Shown: positions 3,631-22,352, numbered from the stretch's first letter. The stretch: DNA of 31,205 bases from a virus (IMGVR_UViG_3300044750_000007:1-31205); one strand, 5' to 3'. Numbers and translations: made by a program. Notes: generated from the sequence alone by a model not told the origin.

Positions 3631-3921
3631 ATGCCGAAACCTCAACGAGAGCGTTGCGTCCTGGTAACAACCGCGCACCGCGGTGTGTTCTGCGGGTACG
3701 CGACCGAAACAGGGGGCGAGACCATCAAGCTGCGAGAGGCTCGTCTCTGTTTGTACTGGTCTGCAGATGTTAAGGGGTTCATGGGCCTCGCGGCAGGTGG
3801 GCCATCTGCGAAGTGCCGTGTTGGCCCACCTGCGGATATTGAGTTGCGCAGTATCACCGCCGTCCTCGAAGTAACTCCGGAGGCTGAAGCAAAATGGAAA
3901 ACCCAACCCTGGTCAGTGTAG
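3631..3921 (+). CDS. DUF6948-like phage protein
   Basis: VLVTTAHRGVFCGY...IKLREARLCLYWS...GLAAGGP; RBS AAGGGAG before ATG 3631. Confidence 0.75.
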   Translation: MPKPQRERCVLVTTAHRGVFCGYATETGGETIKLREARLCLYWSADVKGFMGLAAGGPSAKCRVGPPADIELRSITAVLEVTPEAEAKWKTQPWSV

Positions 3922-4598
3922 AAGACGGTTGCGGTTCCGGTTGCGGTTCCGGTGACGGTTCCGGTGACGGTTACGGTGACGGTTACGGTTCCGGTGACGG
4001 TTACGGTGACGGTTACGGTTACGGTTACGGTTACGGTTCCGGTTACGGTTACGGTGACGGTTACGGTTCCGGTTACGGTTACGGTTCCGGTGACGGTTAC
4101 GGTGACGGTTACGGTTCCGGTTACGGTTACGGTGACGGTTACGGTGACGGTTACGGTTCCGGTTACGGTTCCGGCGACGGTTACGGTGACGGTTACGGTT
4201 CCGGTTACGGTTCCGGCGACGGTTACGGTGACGGTTCCGGCGACGGTTATTGGGTTGCCGTATTTGAAACCCACTACTCAACCCTGCCGCGAGTTCGCGA
4301 GCTCTGCTCTCAGGATCCAACCATTGCGTTTGCTTACTGGAGGTCGGATAGGAGTGGCCGAGCATGCAATGGCGGGAACTCTAAAGAGTCGGCCCGACCG
4401 GGCCTGATTGAACAGATTTCCGGTCCGCTCGAGATTTGTACGCGCCGCGCGTTACACGCCACGGTCGAGCCGACAAGTTACAAAGGCGATCGCCTTTGGG
4501 TTGTCGCGCTATCCGGGGAGATCCAAATCAGCGGTAACAAAGTCGGCGCCCTCAAGCGGGAGATAATCTGTGAAGTCACGGAAAGGAAGGCTGCCTGA
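3894..4598 (+). CDS. Gly-X (GY/GD/GS) repeat protein with a globular C-terminal domain
   Basis: GGAGG before ATG 3894; 54 Gly-X dipeptides; stop overlaps the next ATG (TGATG). Confidence 0.8.
   Translation: MENPTLVSVEDGCGSGCGSGDGSGDGYGDGYGSGDGYGDGYGYGYGYGSGYGYGDGYGSGYGYGSGDGYGDGYGSGYGYGDGYGDGYGSGYGSGDGYGDGYGSGYGSGDGYGDGSGDGYWVAVFETHYSTLPRVRELCSQDPTIAFAYWRSDRSGRACNGGNSKESARPGLIEQISGPLEICTRRALHATVEPTSYKGDRLWVVALSGEIQISGNKVGALKREIICEVTERKAA
3927..4250 (+). repeat. Hexamer tandem array, 54 units of GGTTAC/GGTGAC/GGTTCC and variants
   Basis: 324 nt read directly. Confidence 0.95.
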
Positions 4599-8657: not shown

Positions 8658-11180
8658 TTGGACCATTCCGCATACCTCAGCTTCCTGGAAGGGAAAATCA
8701 AAGGCGCGAGTGGGCGCGCGGTGGCACCGTCTGCGTTGTCGACCGCCCATCCGTCCACTAAGCCGCACCAGCACGACAGCATAGACTGGGCCCTAAGTCG
8801 TGAAAGAGCATTGCTGGCTCTCTCGTTTGGGCTTGGCAAGACTCAGATTGAAACCGAAATCGCTCGCGCCCTCATCGTCGCAAATCCGGGCTCCAAGTTC
8901 TTAGTTGTGTCTCCGTTGGGAGTGAGGCATCAGTTCATCGACGAAGATGGCCCACGGCTGGCGGTGAACTGGAAATACGTCGACAGCGATCGCGCTGTCG
9001 ACAAGTCCGACTCCCCGTTTCTCATAACCAACTACGAGCGAGTTCGCGACGGCAACATCCGGCCGGCGAAGCACAACCTGGTGGGAGCAAGCTTGGACGA
9101 AGGATCCGTGCTGCGCAGCTTTGGTTCCAAAACTACACAGGTTTTCCGCGAGCGGTTCAGCCATCTTCAATACCGCTTTGTTGCCACGGCCACGCCTTCA
9201 CCAAACAACTACCGCGAGCTCATCTACTACGCCGACTTCCTCGGGATTATGGATACCGGACAGGCTCTAACACGATGGTTCAAGCGGAACACTGCGCAAG
9301 CAGGTGACCTGGTCCTGCATCCTCAGCACGAAGCAGACTTCTGGTTATGGGTGAGCACGTGGGCGCTGTTTCTCTACAGCCCGGCCGACATGGGTTACGA
9401 CGCTACCGGTTACGACTTACCGGAGCTGGACGTTCACTGGCACCGAGTTCCCGTTGATCACACCAGGGCTTTCAATCACATCGATAACCACGGCCAGCGC
9501 AAGCTTCTAATCAGCGCAGTCAAAGGCGTGAGCCAGTCTGCCAGGGAGAAGCGCGCCACCCTCCCGGCGCGAGTTGCCAAGGCGAAGGAAATCATTGCGA
9601 CGGCGCCGAATAAGAACTGGCTGTTATGGCACACGCTCGAGGATGAGCGGCGAGCTATTGAACAAGAGGTTCCGGAATCTGTTTCAGTCTACGGTTCGCT
9701 CGACCTTGAAATTCGCGAAGAGCGTGTTATCGCTTTTGCGAGGGGAAAGATTTCGAGACTCGCCACGAAGCCAGAGCTATCAGGATCGGGTTGCAACTTT
9801 CAGCACTACTGCCACTCCAACATCTTTGTTGGCGCTGACTATCGCTTCGAAGACTTCATCCAGGCAATTCACCGCACCAAGCGCTTTCAACAGAAACATC
9901 GCGTGCGAGTCGACATTATTTATGCCGAGAGCGAGCAGCCGATCGCGGACGCGCTAAGAAAGAAGTGGGCGCAACACGACCAGCTCGTTGAGCGCATGCG
10001 CGGAATCATCCGCAAGTACGGCTTAGACCACGGTTTGGTCAAGGAGGAGCTGAAGCGAAAGATAGGCATCGAGCGGGCGGAGGTGGCCGGCGAGAAGTTT
10101 CTGGCTGTTCACAACGACTGTGTGTTGGAGATGCCGAACGTTGCCGACAATTCGGTCGGGCTAATTCACACCTCAATCCCGTTTGGTAATCACTACGAAT
10201 ACACCACGAGCTACGAAGACTTCGGACACAACGACGATAACGCGCGATTCTTTGAGCAGATGGATTTCCTCATACCCGAGCTGCTGCGCGTATTGAAACC
10301 CGGGCGAGTTTGCGCGATCCACGTCAAGGACAGAATTCTTTACAGCCACCAGACGAAGTCCGGCCTGATGGAGGTCGACCCGTTCAGCGACCTGACGGTC
10401 CAGGCCTTCATAAAGCACGGTTTCTTGTACGAAGGGCGCCGGACAATAACCACCGACGTCGTCAGAGAAAACAGTTCGACCTACCGGCTGGGCTATACCG
10501 AAATGTCACGAGACGCAAGCAAGATGGGCAGCGGGCTGCCGGAATACCTGGTGCTATTTCGCAAGGCTCCGTCGCTCACAACAACCGCCAGAGCTGATGA
10601 GCCTGTAACGCGCGAGAAGGCTGACTACAGCCGCGGGCGCTGGCAGATAGACGCCAACGGATACTGGCGTAGCAACGGCGATGTGCTTGCCCCTTCCGAC
10701 TATGAAGGCAAGACCCGGTTCCTGATGGCCATGCTGCTCGCGAGTTCGCCGTACGACTTCGAAGCGCACGTCGCGCGACTTGATGAGTTGGGTCGCCGGG
10801 GCCAGTTGCCGGCGTCGTTTTTCTACGAGCCTCCGGAATCGAACAGTACCTGGGTGTGGGACGATGTGCAGTTGATGCGCTGCCTCAATTCATCCCAGAG
10901 CCGAAGACAGCAAGTGAATCACACCTGCCCGCTGCCTCTCGATATCGTTGAGCGGGTTATCAATCTCTATTCGAATCCCGGCGACATAGTGGCTGACCCA
11001 TTCGCCGGCATCTTCACCGTTCCTTACGTCGCAATTAAAAAGGGCCGCATCGGTTACGGCATCGAACTCAGCCAATCATACTTCAGTGATGGAGCGCGCT
11101 ATTGCAATGAGGCTGAAGCCGAAGTCTCAGTACCCACATTGTTCGATTTGATGGGCAAAGCGGCGGAGGCCGCCGCATAA
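8658..11180 (+). CDS. SNF2-like helicase / N4-N6 DNA methyltransferase fusion
   Basis: FGLGKT, LDEGS, TATPSPN, GSGCNFQ, QAIHRTKRFQQ; then TSIPF, RVLKPGR, HTCPLPLDIVERVINLYSNPGDIVADPFAGIFT. Confidence 0.92.
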   Translation: MDHSAYLSFLEGKIKGASGRAVAPSALSTAHPSTKPHQHDSIDWALSRERALLALSFGLGKTQIETEIARALIVANPGSKFLVVSPLGVRHQFIDEDGPRLAVNWKYVDSDRAVDKSDSPFLITNYERVRDGNIRPAKHNLVGASLDEGSVLRSFGSKTTQVFRERFSHLQYRFVATATPSPNNYRELIYYADFLGIMDTGQALTRWFKRNTAQAGDLVLHPQHEADFWLWVSTWALFLYSPADMGYDATGYDLPELDVHWHRVPVDHTRAFNHIDNHGQRKLLISAVKGVSQSAREKRATLPARVAKAKEIIATAPNKNWLLWHTLEDERRAIEQEVPESVSVYGSLDLEIREERVIAFARGKISRLATKPELSGSGCNFQHYCHSNIFVGADYRFEDFIQAIHRTKRFQQKHRVRVDIIYAESEQPIADALRKKWAQHDQLVERMRGIIRKYGLDHGLVKEELKRKIGIERAEVAGEKFLAVHNDCVLEMPNVADNSVGLIHTSIPFGNHYEYTTSYEDFGHNDDNARFFEQMDFLIPELLRVLKPGRVCAIHVKDRILYSHQTKSGLMEVDPFSDLTVQAFIKHGFLYEGRRTITTDVVRENSSTYRLGYTEMSRDASKMGSGLPEYLVLFRKAPSLTTTARADEPVTREKADYSRGRWQIDANGYWRSNGDVLAPSDYEGKTRFLMAMLLASSPYDFEAHVARLDELGRRGQLPASFFYEPPESNSTWVWDDVQLMRCLNSSQSRRQQVNHTCPLPLDIVERVINLYSNPGDIVADPFAGIFTVPYVAIKKGRIGYGIELSQSYFSDGARYCNEAEAEVSVPTLFDLMGKAAEAAA

Positions 11181-13732: not shown

Positions 13733-15817
13733 ATGACCGCCGAAATCACATCCCGCGCCTTCTCCGAAGCAATTGGCCTGGCCATCCCGCCGCCGCTCAT
13801 AAAGGGCGCGGAGTGGGCCGATCGTTTTCGCGTTGTCTCGAAGGGCAGCAGCTCGCGTCCTGGTCCCTGGCGGACGGACTTGGTTCCTTACACGCGAGAC
13901 ATCATGGACGCTGCCTGCGATCCGGAGATAAAAGAAATCGTCTGGGTAGCCTGCCGGCAAGTTGCGAAGACAGAAACGATTCTCAACATTATCGGCCGCA
14001 GGATTCACGTTGAGCCGGTGCCGCAGTTTTATGCCTGCGAAGACGAAGGGAAATTTAACGAGTGGTCCAAGAAAAGGTTCGCGCCGATGCTGCGAGACAC
14101 GCCGGTCTTGCGGGCGCTGGTGCGCGATGCGCGCATTCGTGGCAGCGACAACACTATCCAGGCAAAGTCCTATCCCGGCGGTTTTCTGATGGGCGGGTGG
14201 GCCACCTCATCAAACACTGCAACCTCGTTCGCCGTCGCCGCGGAATACTTCGACGAACGCGACGCCTACAAGGAAACGGACCTCGGTGATTACTGCAAGG
14301 TCGCTGAGCCGATGCTCGACACCTGGCAGCCGGACACGCTTAGCGTAAAGATTTCCACGCCCGGCGATCGTCTCGAAAACCCGGCCGGGTCTCCCATCGA
14401 CGCGCCGCGCTTTTCACCAATCGAGCGCGAGTATCACGAAAGCGACCAGCGTCGTTACTACGTGCCCTGCCCTCACTGTGGCGAATTCCAAACCCTGAAG
14501 TTTGCCAATCTCAAGTGGGACAAGGAACCGTCCGCTGCCTACTACGTCTGCGGCGACTACACGGCCGAAACAACATCTTCCGGAAAGGAAAAGATTAAAC
14601 GAATCAGGGGTTGCGGCGCCGTCATCGAGCACCGCCACAAAACGAAGATGCTCGCCCGCGGCGAGTGGCGCCAGGAAAACAAGAACGGTCCGCGGGTGAA
14701 GGGTCGCGCCGGCTTCCACCTCAACAAACTCTATTCCCCATTCGTCACCTGGGGCGCGATGGCCGAGGCGTTTGTCGCCGCGAAGCGCAACGGCGATCCG
14801 GGCCAGCTCAAAGCCTTCGTCACCATGTGGCTCGCCGAAGGTTGGGAGCCACCCGAGCCGAAAATCGAAACGAGCGAGATTGTCGATCGCGTCGAAGACT
14901 ATGGCGCGCCGAACGACGAAGGCGGTCATGATCCGATTCCCGTCGGGGTCTGTCTGATTGTCGCCGGCGTCGACGTCCAGTCCGATCGCCTCGAGGCTGA
15001 AATCGTAGGCTTCGGCCTGAACTTCGAAAGCTGGTCCCTTGAATACATCGTCGTCTTCGGTGACCCCACCAAGGACTCCACCTGGGAAGAGCTGAAACGC
15101 GAAGTGGTGACGCGCGAGTTTACCCGCGCCGATGGCGTAACGCTCAAAGTGCAATGCACGGCCATCGATTCGGCCGGCGGCTTCACCAACGAAGTCTACA
15201 AATTCGCTTATGCCAACCGCGGCTATCGCGTGTTCCCGGTGAAGGGCTGGGCCATCACCGGCAAACCAATCGTGGGCCAGCCGACCATGCAAGGTCGCCC
15301 AAAAGTCAAGCTCTTCATGATCGGCACCGAGGCGGCGAAGGACACGTTCATCACGAACTTGAACCTGACCGAGCCCGGCCCGGGTTACTGCCACTTCCCT
15401 CTACAGCGGTCGGGAACCGAAGGGCGCATATTCTACGGTGAAGACCACTTCAAACAGCTACTCTCAGAGCGGCCAAAGATGGAGCGAGGCAAGCGCATAT
15501 GGAAAAAGATCCGAGACCACCTGCGCAACGAAGCGCTCGACTGCCGTGTCTACGCGATGGCCGCCTTCGCAATCTGCTTTGGCGACGGCCGCAAGATGCC
15601 GGCGCTGCACAAATCGCTGAGTGAGCAGGCAGCCAGAATCACCAAGAAACTTCAGGCCGCGCTCGAAACTCAAATCGATGATGAGCCGCGCAATGATGAT
15701 GGCGACGGCGGCGATTCAAACAACAATCCACCGCCCGCGCCACCAGCGCCGCGCATTCCCGATTCCGGTTCGGGGCGCGGAGGCTTTCGCATCCCGCGCG
15801 GCAGTGGACGGTATTAA
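13733..15817 (+). CDS. terL: Terminase large subunit, lambda GpA family
   Basis: EWADRFR...PGPWRTDLVPYTRDIMD, RQVAKTE, FDERD, ISTP, RRYYVPCPHCGEFQ, AGVDVQSDRLE, AIDSAG, RNEALDCRVYA. Confidence 0.96.
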   Translation: MTAEITSRAFSEAIGLAIPPPLIKGAEWADRFRVVSKGSSSRPGPWRTDLVPYTRDIMDAACDPEIKEIVWVACRQVAKTETILNIIGRRIHVEPVPQFYACEDEGKFNEWSKKRFAPMLRDTPVLRALVRDARIRGSDNTIQAKSYPGGFLMGGWATSSNTATSFAVAAEYFDERDAYKETDLGDYCKVAEPMLDTWQPDTLSVKISTPGDRLENPAGSPIDAPRFSPIEREYHESDQRRYYVPCPHCGEFQTLKFANLKWDKEPSAAYYVCGDYTAETTSSGKEKIKRIRGCGAVIEHRHKTKMLARGEWRQENKNGPRVKGRAGFHLNKLYSPFVTWGAMAEAFVAAKRNGDPGQLKAFVTMWLAEGWEPPEPKIETSEIVDRVEDYGAPNDEGGHDPIPVGVCLIVAGVDVQSDRLEAEIVGFGLNFESWSLEYIVVFGDPTKDSTWEELKREVVTREFTRADGVTLKVQCTAIDSAGGFTNEVYKFAYANRGYRVFPVKGWAITGKPIVGQPTMQGRPKVKLFMIGTEAAKDTFITNLNLTEPGPGYCHFPLQRSGTEGRIFYGEDHFKQLLSERPKMERGKRIWKKIRDHLRNEALDCRVYAMAAFAICFGDGRKMPALHKSLSEQAARITKKLQAALETQIDDEPRNDDGDGGDSNNNPPPAPPAPRIPDSGSGRGGFRIPRGSGRY

Positions 15818-17465: not shown

Positions 17466-17707
17466 TGGCCATACGCCTGCTAAAACTCGAACCCGGCGCG
17501 CTGCTGCTGATACTTGAATCAGCAAAGGGCGAACCCGCGCTGCCGCAAGACGCGCGCATCACCGACGTCGCGTTGGACCACGGCCACACAGCCACGCACC
17601 GCGACAGGCCGCCGATAATTGTCCTGCAAATCCAAAGCAGCGAGTGGGAGCCCGAACCCGAGGGCGCCGACCGACCGTCGCTGCCGCCGATGTACTTCAA
17701 ACGCTAA
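17465..17707 (+). CDS. Hypothetical protein
   Basis: TGATG and TAATG coupling at the two ends. Confidence 0.7.
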   Translation: MAIRLLKLEPGALLLILESAKGEPALPQDARITDVALDHGHTATHRDRPPIIVLQIQSSEWEPEPEGADRPSLPPMYFKR

Positions 17708-19422
17708 TGGCGAAACGCTTCAACCTCTGGAAAGCCACCCGTCGCGCCGCGCGAGTTTTTGGCGCGACCCTTCTGGGCGTGCGCGCCTTCGCGATGGCTC
17801 AACACAATCGTCTCACGCGCAACTGGCCCGCCTTTCCGATCGCCGTCAACCGCGAGATGCGGACGCAGCTCCGCACGATGCGCAACCGTTCGCGGAACCT
17901 GGCCCAGAACGACGATTACATTGTTCGCTATCTCCACCTCCGCGAAAACAATATCCCCGGCCCGACAGGCTTCACGCTACAGGTCAGTCTCGAACCAATT
18001 TCCGACGATCCACTGCAAGTTGATCATGACGCTGAAGTCGTTCGGATAATTGAACGGGCCTTTGCCGAGTGGGCGCACATGGAAACCGCCTCGGCGTCGG
18101 GCAAGCTGGCTTTCGTGGACCAGCAGCGATTGATTAACCGCCAGCTCGATCGCGACGGCGAGTCGCTGATTCACCGGCGAGTCGGCGCGGCAAACAAATT
18201 CCGCTACACGCTGAAGATTATCGACGTCGCCTGGCTTGACGAGTTTCACAACGCCGTCAATCCCGCGACCGGCAATCGCATCATCATGGGCGTCGAGGTA
18301 GATGACGACGATCGGCCGGTCGGCTACTGGCTGACGATGCCGACGACGGAGTATCTCTACGGCTCGACGCGGATGACCCGCGACCGGCGGCGTCAGTTCG
18401 TGCCTGCCTCTGAAATGCTTCACGTCTTCGTCTGCAAGGACGATGAGAGCCAGGTACGTGGCTATCCGGAAACTCACACCGCCGGCCTGACGCTGAAGGT
18501 GCTTGACGAGGCGGACTTTGCAGAGCTAGTCAACGCGCACATAGCTGCTTGCAGTCTGCCGTATCTAATTCCTCCCGACGATGAAGACGAGCAAATAAAC
18601 CTAAGCCCAGAGGAAGCCGCCGCGAACAAAACCATCCCGCGCCCCGTTGAGCAGGAGGTACAGCCTGGGGTCCAGAAAATTCTCCCGCCCCGTTGGACGA
18701 TGCAGGCGTACAAAGCCGACCATCCCAACGCGAACTGGCCTGAGTTTGCCAAGAACCAACTACAGCGCGCGTGCGCGGGTCTCAATGCGGCTTACTGTTC
18801 GATATCAGGCGATTTCTCGGGCGGCAGCTATTCCAGCTTTAAGATCGGTCGCTCTGAAGACCAGAGCACTTACCGCGCGCGCCAGGCGTTTCTGATCGAG
18901 CACTTCAACCGCATCGTCGGCTACGAATGGCTGCGCTGCTCAGTGCTTGCCGGCCAGGTGAAGATTTCGCTCCAGGATTTCTCCCGGGTGCGTCTGGACT
19001 GGCAAGGCCGCGGCTGGCCCTCAATCGAGCCGCTGAAAGAAATCCAGGCGACGATTCTGGCGATTAACAATTACCTCGACGATCCAATCACTGACGCTGC
19101 TGAGCGCGGCGATAATTTCTACGAGATGGTCGAGCGGCTAAAGAAAATCAAAAAGGTGCTGAACGATGCCGGCTTTGATTTCCCCACGGCCGGACCCGGA
19201 TCGAAAGCCGTCGCGAACGACAAAACCGACGACACGCCCGATGGCGCCGCCGACGAAGAGAACGCCAAAGACGACGGCTCGAACCACGTGCTGCGCGCGC
19301 TCGAGCCGCAACTGCTCCCCGCGCTGTCGAGGCAGTCAAACGGGCAGCCAATTGTGATCGTCGTCAATCAACTTCCGGCGCCGGCTGCACCCGGCAATGG
19401 CCACTCACATTTGCCAATTTAA
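17707..19422 (+). CDS. Portal protein, lambda family
   Basis: MRNRSRNLAQNDDY, RDGESL, MGVEVDDDDRPVGYW, QVRGYP, ISGDFSGGSYSS, RGWPSIEPLKE. Confidence 0.95.
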   Translation: MAKRFNLWKATRRAARVFGATLLGVRAFAMAQHNRLTRNWPAFPIAVNREMRTQLRTMRNRSRNLAQNDDYIVRYLHLRENNIPGPTGFTLQVSLEPISDDPLQVDHDAEVVRIIERAFAEWAHMETASASGKLAFVDQQRLINRQLDRDGESLIHRRVGAANKFRYTLKIIDVAWLDEFHNAVNPATGNRIIMGVEVDDDDRPVGYWLTMPTTEYLYGSTRMTRDRRRQFVPASEMLHVFVCKDDESQVRGYPETHTAGLTLKVLDEADFAELVNAHIAACSLPYLIPPDDEDEQINLSPEEAAANKTIPRPVEQEVQPGVQKILPPRWTMQAYKADHPNANWPEFAKNQLQRACAGLNAAYCSISGDFSGGSYSSFKIGRSEDQSTYRARQAFLIEHFNRIVGYEWLRCSVLAGQVKISLQDFSRVRLDWQGRGWPSIEPLKEIQATILAINNYLDDPITDAAERGDNFYEMVERLKKIKKVLNDAGFDFPTAGPGSKAVANDKTDDTPDGAADEENAKDDGSNHVLRALEPQLLPALSRQSNGQPIVIVVNQLPAPAAPGNGHSHLPI

Positions 19423-19473: not shown

Positions 19474-21807
19474 ATGAAGCGTTCCCCCAAACAATTTCCG
19501 CTCAACAAGCTGGTAGGCATACGCCAACGCCGCAACGCGACGCCTGAACAATCCCAGGTCGACAAGCTGATAGGTGTAAGCCAGCGCCGCGACACGACGT
19601 TTGATGCGCGCGACTTGAAGCTTGCCGACGACGCCCAGGTTATCTCGGTAACTTTCTCGAGTGAGGCTCCGGTCTACCGGAATATTGGCGGCTTCAGTTT
19701 CTACGAAATTCTTGACCACTCGACTCAGGCTGCCGCCGATTTCCGCCGGCTCAACAGCGGCGGTCAGTTTATTCGCAATCACGACATTAACCAGGTGATG
19801 GGAGTCGTCGAGGATGGCAGCGCGAAAATTGATGGCGCCATTCGCAAAGGTTGCGCTGACCTTAGATTTTCTGAACGGCCGGAAGCTCAGTTAGAGCGCG
19901 TCGACGTGCTCAAGGGCGTGCGTCGCAACTTCAGCTTCGATTACGAGGTGACCGCGCCGTATATCGACACGAACAAGAAAATCAACGGCCTCCCGACTCT
20001 GCGGGCAATGGCCTGGCGCGTGCTTTCAATCTGTACCGAGACTCACGCCGCCGACATCACGGTCGGTCACGGGCCCGATCGCCGCACCCATGAACACGGA
20101 CGCGCCCAGCAACGCGGTTTGGGTTGTTCGTGCGCGTGCTGCACGCCCGGCAATCCACAACCGTGCTGCTGCTGTTGCCCGAATCTGACCTCGGCGCCGC
20201 TCAGTTGTAACTGTGCATGTTGCCAGTCTTATTACCCCAGGCCGTGTTGCTGTTGCTGTGACGCGACTGGCCAATCAGACCCCGTTGAAACCGGAGAACG
20301 AAGGAGAACGAACATCATGTTGTGTCACGCCCGCTCTGCCGCGGAATGCCAAACCGACAATTGCTCGCAGCACCCCGCCGCCGACAAGCGCGCCGCGCAA
20401 ACACCGCCGACGCCTCAGCAAATCATCGCCACGCGCCAGGCTGAATTGACCGGTTGGGCCGGAGTATTCGGTGATACGCCGGAAGAGGTTGCGGAGTACA
20501 CGCAGCTCGCTCGAGATTACGCGCGCGACGCGACAAAGCTGACGCTTGAAATGCCGGCCGTGTCCGACATGTTCAAGGCCGCGATCGAGAAAGCGAAGAG
20601 TTCCACGCGCGCCGCAGTCAACACTGCGAAGCCGCCGCAAGGTCTTGTGACCGTTCCCGGCCGTCGCACGAACAAGCTGCGCGTTTTCAAGGGCGAGGGC
20701 GGCGACCTGCGCGCTTATCGGATGTACATGGGCCTTCTGGGGAATGCCTTCTACGGCCAACGTGGGTGGGATGAATTTAAGAGCTCGCCGGTAATCAAGC
20801 GGGCTCACCAGTACTGTCAGGACCACGGCCTGCTGCAACGCGCCGCCGCGGAAGGCCAAAGCGAGGGCGATCCGGAAGCTGGCGGCTTTACGGTGATCGA
20901 GGAATGGTCGCCCGAAACCATCGACCTGCATGAGAACTTTGGCGTGATGCGCCGCTACGCGAAGGTCGAGCCGATGGCTAGCGAAGCAAAGAACGTTCGA
21001 CGCCGCGAGGGCGGCCTGCAGTTCCACTCCGCCGGCGAAGCTGAAGACGTTGCGGTCGAAAAGAAAAAGTGGGGCGGCAATAAACTGGTCGCGAAAAAGT
21101 TTTTGTGTCTCGCCAACATCACCAGCGAGCTGAACGAAGACTCCGCGGTCAACCAGGCAGACGATCTCGCTTACGAAATGGTTCTGGCGGAAGCCCGCCT
21201 CGAGGATAGGCTCGGGTTCCTGGCTGATGGTACCGGCGACGACCAAACAGAGACCGGTTACCAAGGCATCGTGGGCATCATTCAGAAGATGCTCAGCCTG
21301 CACGCCACGAAGACGAACATCGCCGGCCTGGTGATTGCTGCCGGTACGATCAACGCCATCAACAAGGTTCCGCTCATCCTGGGCGACCTGCGAATGGGCA
21401 CGCTGCTGGGCGATCGTTCCGCTTTGACCATTTCAATGAGCGAGCAGTCTTCTTTCCGCAATGACACGATCGACCTGAAAGGTCGCATCCGGCGCGATTT
21501 CATCGCGCACAGCGTCGGCAATGCCAACACTGACGCAGCCTTGCGTGAGCCTGGCCCGATCGTCGCGCTCGGTACCGACAACTGGTCCGCCGTGACTTCC
21601 GATCACATGAATACGCTGATGGGTCGTCTGCCGGAATTCGAAGGCATTCAGCCGGTGTTCTTCTGCCACAAGACGTTCTACTTCCAGGTGCTCCGCAAGA
21701 TATTGATTGCAGCCGGCGGCGCGACACCGGGCGACTTGGCTGGTTCCGGTCCATTCCAGTTCGGCGGCTATCCGGTGCAGTTCACCCAGATTATGCCGAA
21801 GTCGTAA
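19474..21807 (+). CDS. Prohead protease - scaffold - HK97-fold major capsid protein fusion
   Basis: Protease FSSEAPVYR...EILDHS...NHD...MGVVE...LRFS...GVRRNFSFDY; capsid AGGFTVIEEWS...GE...ITSELNEDS...DGTG...GDL...GYPV. Confidence 0.92.
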   Translation: MKRSPKQFPLNKLVGIRQRRNATPEQSQVDKLIGVSQRRDTTFDARDLKLADDAQVISVTFSSEAPVYRNIGGFSFYEILDHSTQAAADFRRLNSGGQFIRNHDINQVMGVVEDGSAKIDGAIRKGCADLRFSERPEAQLERVDVLKGVRRNFSFDYEVTAPYIDTNKKINGLPTLRAMAWRVLSICTETHAADITVGHGPDRRTHEHGRAQQRGLGCSCACCTPGNPQPCCCCCPNLTSAPLSCNCACCQSYYPRPCCCCCDATGQSDPVETGERRRTNIMLCHARSAAECQTDNCSQHPAADKRAAQTPPTPQQIIATRQAELTGWAGVFGDTPEEVAEYTQLARDYARDATKLTLEMPAVSDMFKAAIEKAKSSTRAAVNTAKPPQGLVTVPGRRTNKLRVFKGEGGDLRAYRMYMGLLGNAFYGQRGWDEFKSSPVIKRAHQYCQDHGLLQRAAAEGQSEGDPEAGGFTVIEEWSPETIDLHENFGVMRRYAKVEPMASEAKNVRRREGGLQFHSAGEAEDVAVEKKKWGGNKLVAKKFLCLANITSELNEDSAVNQADDLAYEMVLAEARLEDRLGFLADGTGDDQTETGYQGIVGIIQKMLSLHATKTNIAGLVIAAGTINAINKVPLILGDLRMGTLLGDRSALTISMSEQSSFRNDTIDLKGRIRRDFIAHSVGNANTDAALREPGPIVALGTDNWSAVTSDHMNTLMGRLPEFEGIQPVFFCHKTFYFQVLRKILIAAGGATPGDLAGSGPFQFGGYPVQFTQIMPKS

Positions 21808-21908: not shown

Positions 21909-22352
21909 ATGAACGACGCGCTGAACATCAAAACCATCAACGTCACGCCGGCCGGCGCCATCAAGGACAATGCCAGCTTTACCGCCGCCGCGGTCGACAT
22001 GCTGGGCTTCCGCTTTTGCACGTTTGAAATCAGCCTGGGCGCCACCGATATCGACGTAGCGGCTTTGAAGCTTCAGCACTCGGACGATGACGGCTCGGCG
22101 GACGCCTATGCGGACGTTGACGGCGCGGATTATGCGGTTGATTCGACCGTTCCCCAGGACGACGAAGACAACAAAATCTTCGCCATCCACGTCGACATGC
22201 GCGGCGGTAAGAAGCGCTATCTGAAGTTGGTCTTCACCGCTGGCGACGGCGCGGCCGGGACTTACGCCGACGTGAAAGCGCGACTGTCGCGGCCCGAGAC
22301 TTTCCTTCGTTCCGCCGCCGATCGTGGTTACACGCGCGAGCTGTTCGTCTAG
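21909..22352 (+). CDS. Capsid-associated decoration/cement-like protein
   Basis: Directly after the MCP with RBS GGGGAG; AVDMLGF...LKLQHSDD...YADVDGA...KKRYLKL suggests a jelly-roll. Confidence 0.6.
   Translation: MNDALNIKTINVTPAGAIKDNASFTAAAVDMLGFRFCTFEISLGATDIDVAALKLQHSDDDGSADAYADVDGADYAVDSTVPQDDEDNKIFAIHVDMRGGKKRYLKLVFTAGDGAAGTYADVKARLSRPETFLRSAADRGYTRELFV

Follow-up and report, generated by a model that had tools for sequence, protein, structure and literature searches.

An N-β-α capsid gene in a soil phage: a permutation of likely independent and old origin inside the HK97-type family

Non-circular permutations of proteins are rare according to the excerpts of PMC3863775 and PMC5701804 drawn on here. 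One such case, the N-β-α wiring of the HK97-type capsid, is already known from phages BPP-1 and epsilon15; the excerpt of PMC3863775 describes the origin of this second wiring as obscured, with no similarity linking it to the normal capsids, and that of PMC5701804 proposes a switch in ancient cells through several cut-and-paste steps. The same question is raised by the window analyzed here, the whole stretch of a 31-kb virus record that is ~50% complete and that the label of the sequencing runs containing it assigns to soil. Its capsid gene had been described in an earlier note as an independent, recent permutation of the BPP-1 type with a recombination footprint that is still visible. Is the block order of this gene genuine, how old is it, and from what kind of capsid could it have evolved?

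Block order of the capsid domain

The gene (19474-21807, plus strand) encodes a 777-aa fusion (P0001) of a prohead protease, a Cys-rich linker, a scaffold-like region and the major capsid protein. Residues 49-205 match phrog_4523 (‘major head and protease’), with phrog_617 matched as well, and residues 470-631 match PF05065 (E 3.7e-12). The PF05065 score of 46.7 bits, against a curated cut-off of 24.2, places the capsid in the HK97 family, and its atlas neighbours are PF05065 clusters. Terminase, portal and protease genes surround it as a head module, with a lambda gpA-type terminase large subunit at 13733-15817 (plus strand; PF05876 and PF20454) and a lambda-type portal protein at 17644-19422 (plus strand; PF05136, E 1e-64), and the tail genes of the window include those for a tape measure and a major tail protein. 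The PF05065 match covers profile positions 1-180 only and breaks off there because the order of the α and β elements is swapped.

This swap is apparent when the capsid domain of the window protein (P0002) serves as the query for a profile of 150 normal relatives, which aligns to it as three domains in altered order: profile positions 7-167 to residues 11-177 (161 bits), 245-320 to residues 179-254 (82 bits) and 167-243 to residues 254-328 (73 bits). The single unmatched profile position between the blocks is 244, and the three-piece match reveals neither loss nor repetition on the scale of a domain. The N element (20848-21345, plus strand), which comprises the N-arm, the E-loop, the spine helix and the first A-domain strand, is collinear with the normal relatives. 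The β element (21346-21576, plus strand; 77 aa), supported by both the profile and BLASTP, starts with a 7-residue linker and is the second block here and the C-terminal one in the normal relatives, whereas the α element (21577-21807, plus strand; 76 aa in frame at 21577-21804 and a stop codon at 21805-21807) is their middle block and C-terminal here. In BLASTP of the window capsid against two normal relatives, the HSPs come out in swapped order, as the earlier note had anticipated, and its placement of β before α at the capsid C-terminus agrees with the three-piece match. The moved block that it delimited, 21348-21575, is indeed 76 codons long but begins on a third codon position, the in-frame β element being 21346-21576. 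The swapped order is real: the permuted capsid is an ordinary HK97-type protein whose two final blocks have changed places without loss.

The window capsid thus departs from the N-α-β order of the HK97 topology and has the N-β-α order of the BPP topology, with cuts at the ends of A-domain elements, as assessed by comparing the boundaries on the model of a normal relative with the element definitions of PMC3863775. In the BPP-1 capsid, likewise N-β-α, the β and α elements are 73 and 90 aa long (PMC3863775, excerpt), against 77 and 76 aa here, and the proposed BPP-1-type permutation is upheld in both order and block sizes.

Several other features of the window are of separate interest. The fusion gene starts with a 57-base unit in two tandem copies that are 75% alike (19490-19603), and L003 carries a similar doubled peptide. 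At 748-2391, a gene for a TPR protein and a short ORF whose product has a hydrophobic leader are oriented divergently, and the two may be akin to a peptide-sensing regulator pair. An 840-aa protein (8658-11180) fuses an SNF2-type helicase domain with an N6/N4 DNA methylase, and a low-complexity ORF of Thr/Val/Gly repeats (3642-4274, minus strand) lies opposite short plus-strand genes, which suggests that the DNA there is a short tandem repeat.

Occurrence, age and relatives of the permuted clade

Among 186 proteins classed with element profiles (from Logan, JGI, ENA and NCBI records and four further contigs), 18, including the window's own, are N-β-α and 168 are N-α-β. The same order is thus present, as the earlier note expected of other genomes, in 17 other proteins and four other contigs, with P0012 and P0017 being near-copies. 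An assembly artefact might be suspected because the window record is metagenomic (run X1 may be its source), but these independent records rule out misassembly; moreover, contigs from two other studies span junction 1, though none in those runs spans junction 2, and a joint to the normal order was looked for in 4 runs and not seen. Runs X2-X4 contain small shares of the window, individual contigs alone having been used, and the coverage of junction 2 by run X2, only ~20 bases on one side, is too small to count. The probability of an artefact is, in our estimate, negligible.

With the rearranged region as the query, 14 of 32 matches aligned over 96-100% at 62-95% identity, and the remaining 18 over 34-45% only. 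A library clustered at 50% yielded 1,130 matching proteins, with one single-stretch match among the best 150, so that the permuted forms make up a single small cluster within that set. No relatives were found among longer proteins (883-2520 aa), and none in annotated phage genomes or GTDB genomes. The profile score of the permuted capsid is about one third of that of its relatives (47 vs 115-133 bits), and more cases may therefore hide under ordinary ‘phage capsid’ labels.

Purifying selection acts on each of the three blocks, with dN/dS of 0.02-0.22 at dS of 0.8-2.3 in 28 of 30 comparisons (the other two are saturated). In provirus G001 (CheckV 100%), the sole match to PF05065 or to the family is the permuted gene, and in G000 and G002 the capsid matches are pieces of the permuted gene only, which suggests that the permuted protein is the working capsid protein of these phages. 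The order is common to relatives down to 62% identity and synonymous sites are near saturation; the permutation is shared and old, and the claim of a recent event fails.

The supposed footprint of that event consists of two copies of CGGTAC, which do occur at 21342-21347 and 21570-21575 (plus strand), 228 bases apart. The β block could have been moved by a recent cut-and-paste through recombination at these microhomologies: an exact 6-base repeat flanks the block, an in-register match of this length is seen in 0.4-1.0% of the in-phase position pairs drawn at random from the capsid gene, and 5 of the 17 permuted proteins carry Gly-Thr at the two junctions. However, the chance of such a match is ~14% when both sites encode Gly-Thr, and the hexamer occurs 8 times on the plus strand of the window. 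The pair is kept in none of the four relatives with DNA, one of them 95% identical in protein, and the longest in-register junction match is 6 bases in the window vs 4, 2, 2 and 2 in these relatives. Copy 1 (x-Gly-Thr) is not conserved, being altered in contigs from two other runs, and is likely coincidental, whereas in copy 2 the Thr is the normal C-terminal Thr and the Gly is likely derived. Of the 17 permuted proteins, 6 have a Gly at junction 2, and these six constitute a single derived subclade (β tree support 97); the proteins outside this subclade have Ala, Ile or Met before the junction-2 Thr. Given the dS of 0.8-2.3 among carriers, the two synonymous positions of CGGTAC would not survive, and for an ancient role of microhomology the earliest-branching members should show Gly-Thr at each junction, which they do not. 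A scan for repeats of at least 9 bases shows none that pairs the two junctions among the 20 families listed. The CGGTAC repeats are no recombination footprint, and a recent transfer through them is very improbable.

What junction 2 does preserve is the old chain end. The β elements of 155 normal relatives end most often in Ile-Thr (47), with Leu-Thr in 15 and Ala-Thr in 13; the junction-2 residues resemble these ends, and junction 2 is therefore the point where α has been attached to the old C-terminus. In permuted members with longer tails, the terminal sequence matches the old α-β linker. Removal of the β block, which according to the earlier note restores LVIAAGTDNWS, gives a spacing of three residues from Gly to the aromatic residue; in most close normal relatives this spacing is two.

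The N element is not involved in the swap. In a tree built from it alone (91 of 171 rows, quick search, midpoint root, no outgroup), the 16 permuted rows cluster as a single clade (SH-aLRT 100) within a set that otherwise comprises 75 normal rows, and the normal-order P0043 is its sister. More careful trees of 37 rows recover P0043 as the sister with support of 100/97 for β and 92/85 for N; this position is less certain than the clade itself because the quick N tree has no outgroup and the stem is long (0.96). P0043 is 55% identical to permuted members in N and in β, P0002 aligns with it at a local score of 538, and none of 99 normal IMG/VR capsids compared scores closer. Overall, the normal-order relatives are 40-55% identical to the permuted clade, and the sole named one, P0025, is labelled as a Blastocatellia bacterium phage major capsid protein. 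A search of the PDB with the family profile gives 25 sequences that include RcGTA, HK97, T5 and further capsids. With a profile built solely from the permuted clade, the PDB yields no capsid. On these sequence comparisons, the clade arose inside the ordinary HK97-type (PF05065) family.

Private changes in N number 29-38 in the permuted proteins vs 4-11 in P0043, in 12 of 12 triples; faster change in the permuted lineage is also seen for α in most triples and for β in some only. Our reading is that the changes on the stem would represent compensation after the rewiring, the alternative being a general rate increase in the clade.

The modules upstream of the capsid domain vary among these phages. 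The linker between protease and scaffold (window ~20125-20265, P0001 residues ~218-264) has eighteen cysteines in ~50 residues. Of 13 full-length permuted fusions, 10 carry it almost unchanged, P0014 and P0021 have a reduced form and P0022 has none, and it is also missing from the normal-order P0043 and P0030; it is possibly a metal-binding element. At least two protease modules are fused to the permuted capsid domain, that of the window and L003 (window 19474-20100) and that of L002, P0014, P0021 and P0022 (L002 4531-5400), suggesting module exchange upstream of a stable permuted capsid. In the normal relative L006, an ORF pair (1667-2797) that we take to be similar to an IS200/IS605-type element lies between the portal and capsid genes.

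Predicted fold and route of origin

AlphaFold modelled the permuted domain with a pLDDT of 33 on a shallow alignment of 17 sequences, and the ESM Atlas holds no model of the permuted protein. The normal relative L006, a natural normal-order control, was modelled with a pLDDT of 87.6. This model aligns end to end with HK97 gp5 (1ohg, TM 0.63/0.72) and with the GTA capsid in a VIA-align comparison that cannot distinguish wirings and in which BPP-1 is not among the rows listed. The block boundaries fall between strands and helices of the L006 model: the first follows strand 162-164, the middle block contains helices together with strands 195-198 and 233-237, and the last block has its first strand at 252-255 and its final one at 316-320, positions that fit the α and β elements defined for BPP-1 (PMC3863775). 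For the permuted protein, the prediction is the usual HK97 shape, wired as in BPP-1. Because all cut points lie at the ends of A-domain strands and helices, the 7-residue linker would connect N to β, the old C-terminus would lead directly into the first helix of α, and the chain would finish in the old α-β linker. If the HK97 pathway is a guide, the fusion would be translated as protease-scaffold-capsid and then trimmed during head maturation.

Alternatively, the terminal α element could be swapped into the neighbouring subunit, or the A-domain could be remodelled, with no BPP-1 wiring within the chain. The low pLDDT, which leaves the intrachain fold without the backing of a model, and the long α stem in all trees are compatible with such an arrangement, as is the engineered swap in BPP-1 that gave no plaques (PMC3863775, excerpt), so that a simple reconnection is not trivially tolerated. 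Against it, full length and the family motifs are kept in all three blocks, the block sizes and cut points match those of BPP-1, whose intrachain wiring has been determined, and the excerpt of PMC3863775 argues that no more than two wirings can work. We consider this alternative distinctly improbable.

Permutation by duplication is a model from the literature on circular permutations, and duplication followed by deletion is the likely route of origin here too. A second α element (α′) would have been added behind the normal C-terminus to give N-α-β-α′, supplied either by an intragenic duplication or by recombination with another capsid gene. Deletion of the first α and loss of anything after α′ would have come next, and then compensating changes. 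This route is favoured because its intermediate keeps an intact normal fold, whereas the one-step swap in BPP-1 was dead. Among 348 sequences with an α or β match, none has a duplicated element, and no intermediate was found; a β remnant behind the stop codon was sought and is absent in 5 of 5 DNAs. For the source of the new α, we put the same gene at near an even chance, a second gene somewhat below that, and any other source at a small remainder.

The second of these options, a variant of the route that is compatible with the main claim, would have N and β derive from a P0043-like gene and α from another capsid gene with a G-[IM]-x-P loop. This loop is present in all 16 permuted α elements tested vs ~9 of 155 normal ones, the latter being distant in N; α reaches a best mean of 44% to any normal sequence, with P0043 outside the top 8, compared to 55% for N and β. 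Furthermore, none of four trees groups α with P0043, two of them placing the permuted α on the side of the G-[IM]-x-P subfamily with weak support, and the AU test under LG+G4 rejects the grouping of permuted α with P0043 (p = 0.006). However, two AU tests under the mixture model do not reject this grouping (p = 0.73; p = 0.28), and one tree sets α among the mainstream rows. The data comprise only ~80 columns with a long stem, the taxa of the p = 0.006 test were chosen in part by α similarity, and GC3 is alike across the three blocks (0.74-0.77). Two parents therefore appear plausible, if a little less so than not.

Taken together, we are fairly sure that the N-β-α capsid gene represents a lossless swap under purifying selection, with a predicted HK97 shape of BPP-1 wiring and likely a single old, independent origin.

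The downstream gene and comparison with BPP-1 and epsilon15

The capsid gene is followed by a gene for a 147-aa protein (21909-22352, plus strand), likely a jelly-roll cement protein of the Bbp16 type. The protein has no Pfam match, and no cement protein match was obtained in PDB or Pfam at database scale; pairwise BLASTP against Bbp16 is not significant (E 0.058). A profile of 108 homologues is collinear with Bbp16 (12.5 bits) and epsilon15 gp8 (17.9 bits) at low scores that beat all shuffles, 995 for Bbp16, narrowly, and 992 for gp8. The atlas neighbour of the protein (0.92) carries PF21190 on 15% of its members. A WD40-repeat identity of the family was rejected, as it came from summed short repeats with no passing stretch. 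Of 157 loci with the 147-aa gene, 80 were kept, and the gene adjoins a normal capsid in 77 of these and a permuted capsid in 2; of 583 normal-capsid loci, 80 were likewise kept, and 72 of them carry the gene. If it encodes a cement protein, the gene, found mostly beside normal capsids, would thus predate the swap. The excerpt of PMC5701804 gives no answer on whether the rearrangement requires the cement dimer; under the same assumption, the dimer may be a precondition of the swap but not its consequence.

The shared order and this likely Bbp16-like gene, placed after the capsid as in BPP-1 and epsilon15, could be taken to mean that the clade descends from the BPP-1/epsilon15 lineage or that N-β-α is ancestral in its family, the more so as the trees are unrooted. 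The scores argue otherwise. Bbp17 and gp7 are 46% alike, and the BPP-1 capsid is reported to have no similarity that can be recognised to the other HK97-like capsids (PMC3863775, excerpt). The local score of P0002 is 43 with Bbp17, equalled or beaten by 33 of 300 shuffles, and 49 with gp7, equalled or beaten by 9 of 300 (marginal), in contrast to 538 with P0043, so that kinship with the BPP-1/epsilon15 capsids is not apparent. The family profile gives 28 bits with HK97 gp5 vs 7 with Bbp17 and 2 with gp7; its N and β parts match gp5 at 157-231 and 325-368, respectively, above all shuffles, and the α profile gives weak matches of ~3 bits each at the α elements of Bbp17 (293-323) and gp7 (281-326). 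The permuted members, at least 59-65% alike per block, are one branch among far more diverse normal proteins, the cement-like gene mostly accompanies normal capsids, and the surrounding lambda-type portal and terminase and tape measure genes are unlike a podovirus head. The BPP-1-like group of PMC5701804 is characterized by a non-covalent chainmail, jelly-roll cement dimers at the two-fold sites, an untruncated capsid protein, a separate scaffold and a podovirus morphology; on the last three points, the phage of the window differs: it instead has a protease-scaffold fusion and genes for a tape measure and a major tail protein. Both descent from the BPP-1/epsilon15 lineage and an ancestral N-β-α order are accordingly exceedingly improbable, and the independence proposed in the earlier note is likely, given the family kinship to HK97-order capsids and a score with Bbp17 at the level of shuffles; this judgement is based on sequence kinship and on trees built without BPP-1.

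A search for reports of a second origin of the BPP wiring, or of this soil-phage clade, found none, with subscription journals thinly covered and supplements excluded. The excerpts of PMC8814770, PMC9698820, PMC12002296 and bioRxiv 10.64898/2026.02.16.706137 describe no second origin, and that of PMC12002296 still sets BPP-1 as the contrast to HK97. We have good confidence in a likely independent, old and selected N-β-α permutation with close normal-order relatives. With less assurance, but still probably, this is a second independent natural case of BPP wiring with a 55% identical sister, possibly stitched from two capsid genes and followed by a compensating burst. If so, the switch from HK97 to BPP wiring would be a repeatable step inside phage lineages and not a one-off in ancient cells, and the cement dimer would be older than the switch and not its result. 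The clade and its sister would be the first before-and-after pair for studying how capsid rewiring evolves: with both orders in one family at 40-55% identity, the junctions, the compensating changes and the role of the cement protein become comparable residue by residue.

Compared with the HK97 gp5/RcGTA family (PF05065, N-α-β), the permuted capsid belongs to the same sequence family and has three blocks homologous over their full length, with α and β exchanged; it differs from normal PF05065 relatives also in a 6-residue insertion after the spine helix and in 16 near-fixed changes at sites conserved in the latter. The sister family (P0043, L006/L007 and P0025) retains the N-α-β order with a different α loop, and the gene order of L006 is portal, protease-capsid fusion, 146-aa gene and head-closure/tail genes. 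With BPP-1 Bbp17 and epsilon15 gp7, the permuted capsid shares the N-β-α order and similar block sizes, as well as a downstream gene that is likely related to the small cement gene directly following the capsid in those phages; unlike them, it belongs to PF05065 and is part of a protease-scaffold fusion among lambda-type portal and terminase and long-tail genes, and, in contrast to BPP-1, its clade has normal-order relatives at the identities given above. In the engineered BPP-1 permutants PM1 and PM2 (PMC3863775, excerpt), the same two blocks were exchanged in the opposite direction and in one step, with a non-functional outcome, whereas the natural permutation is old, selected and accompanied by many further changes.
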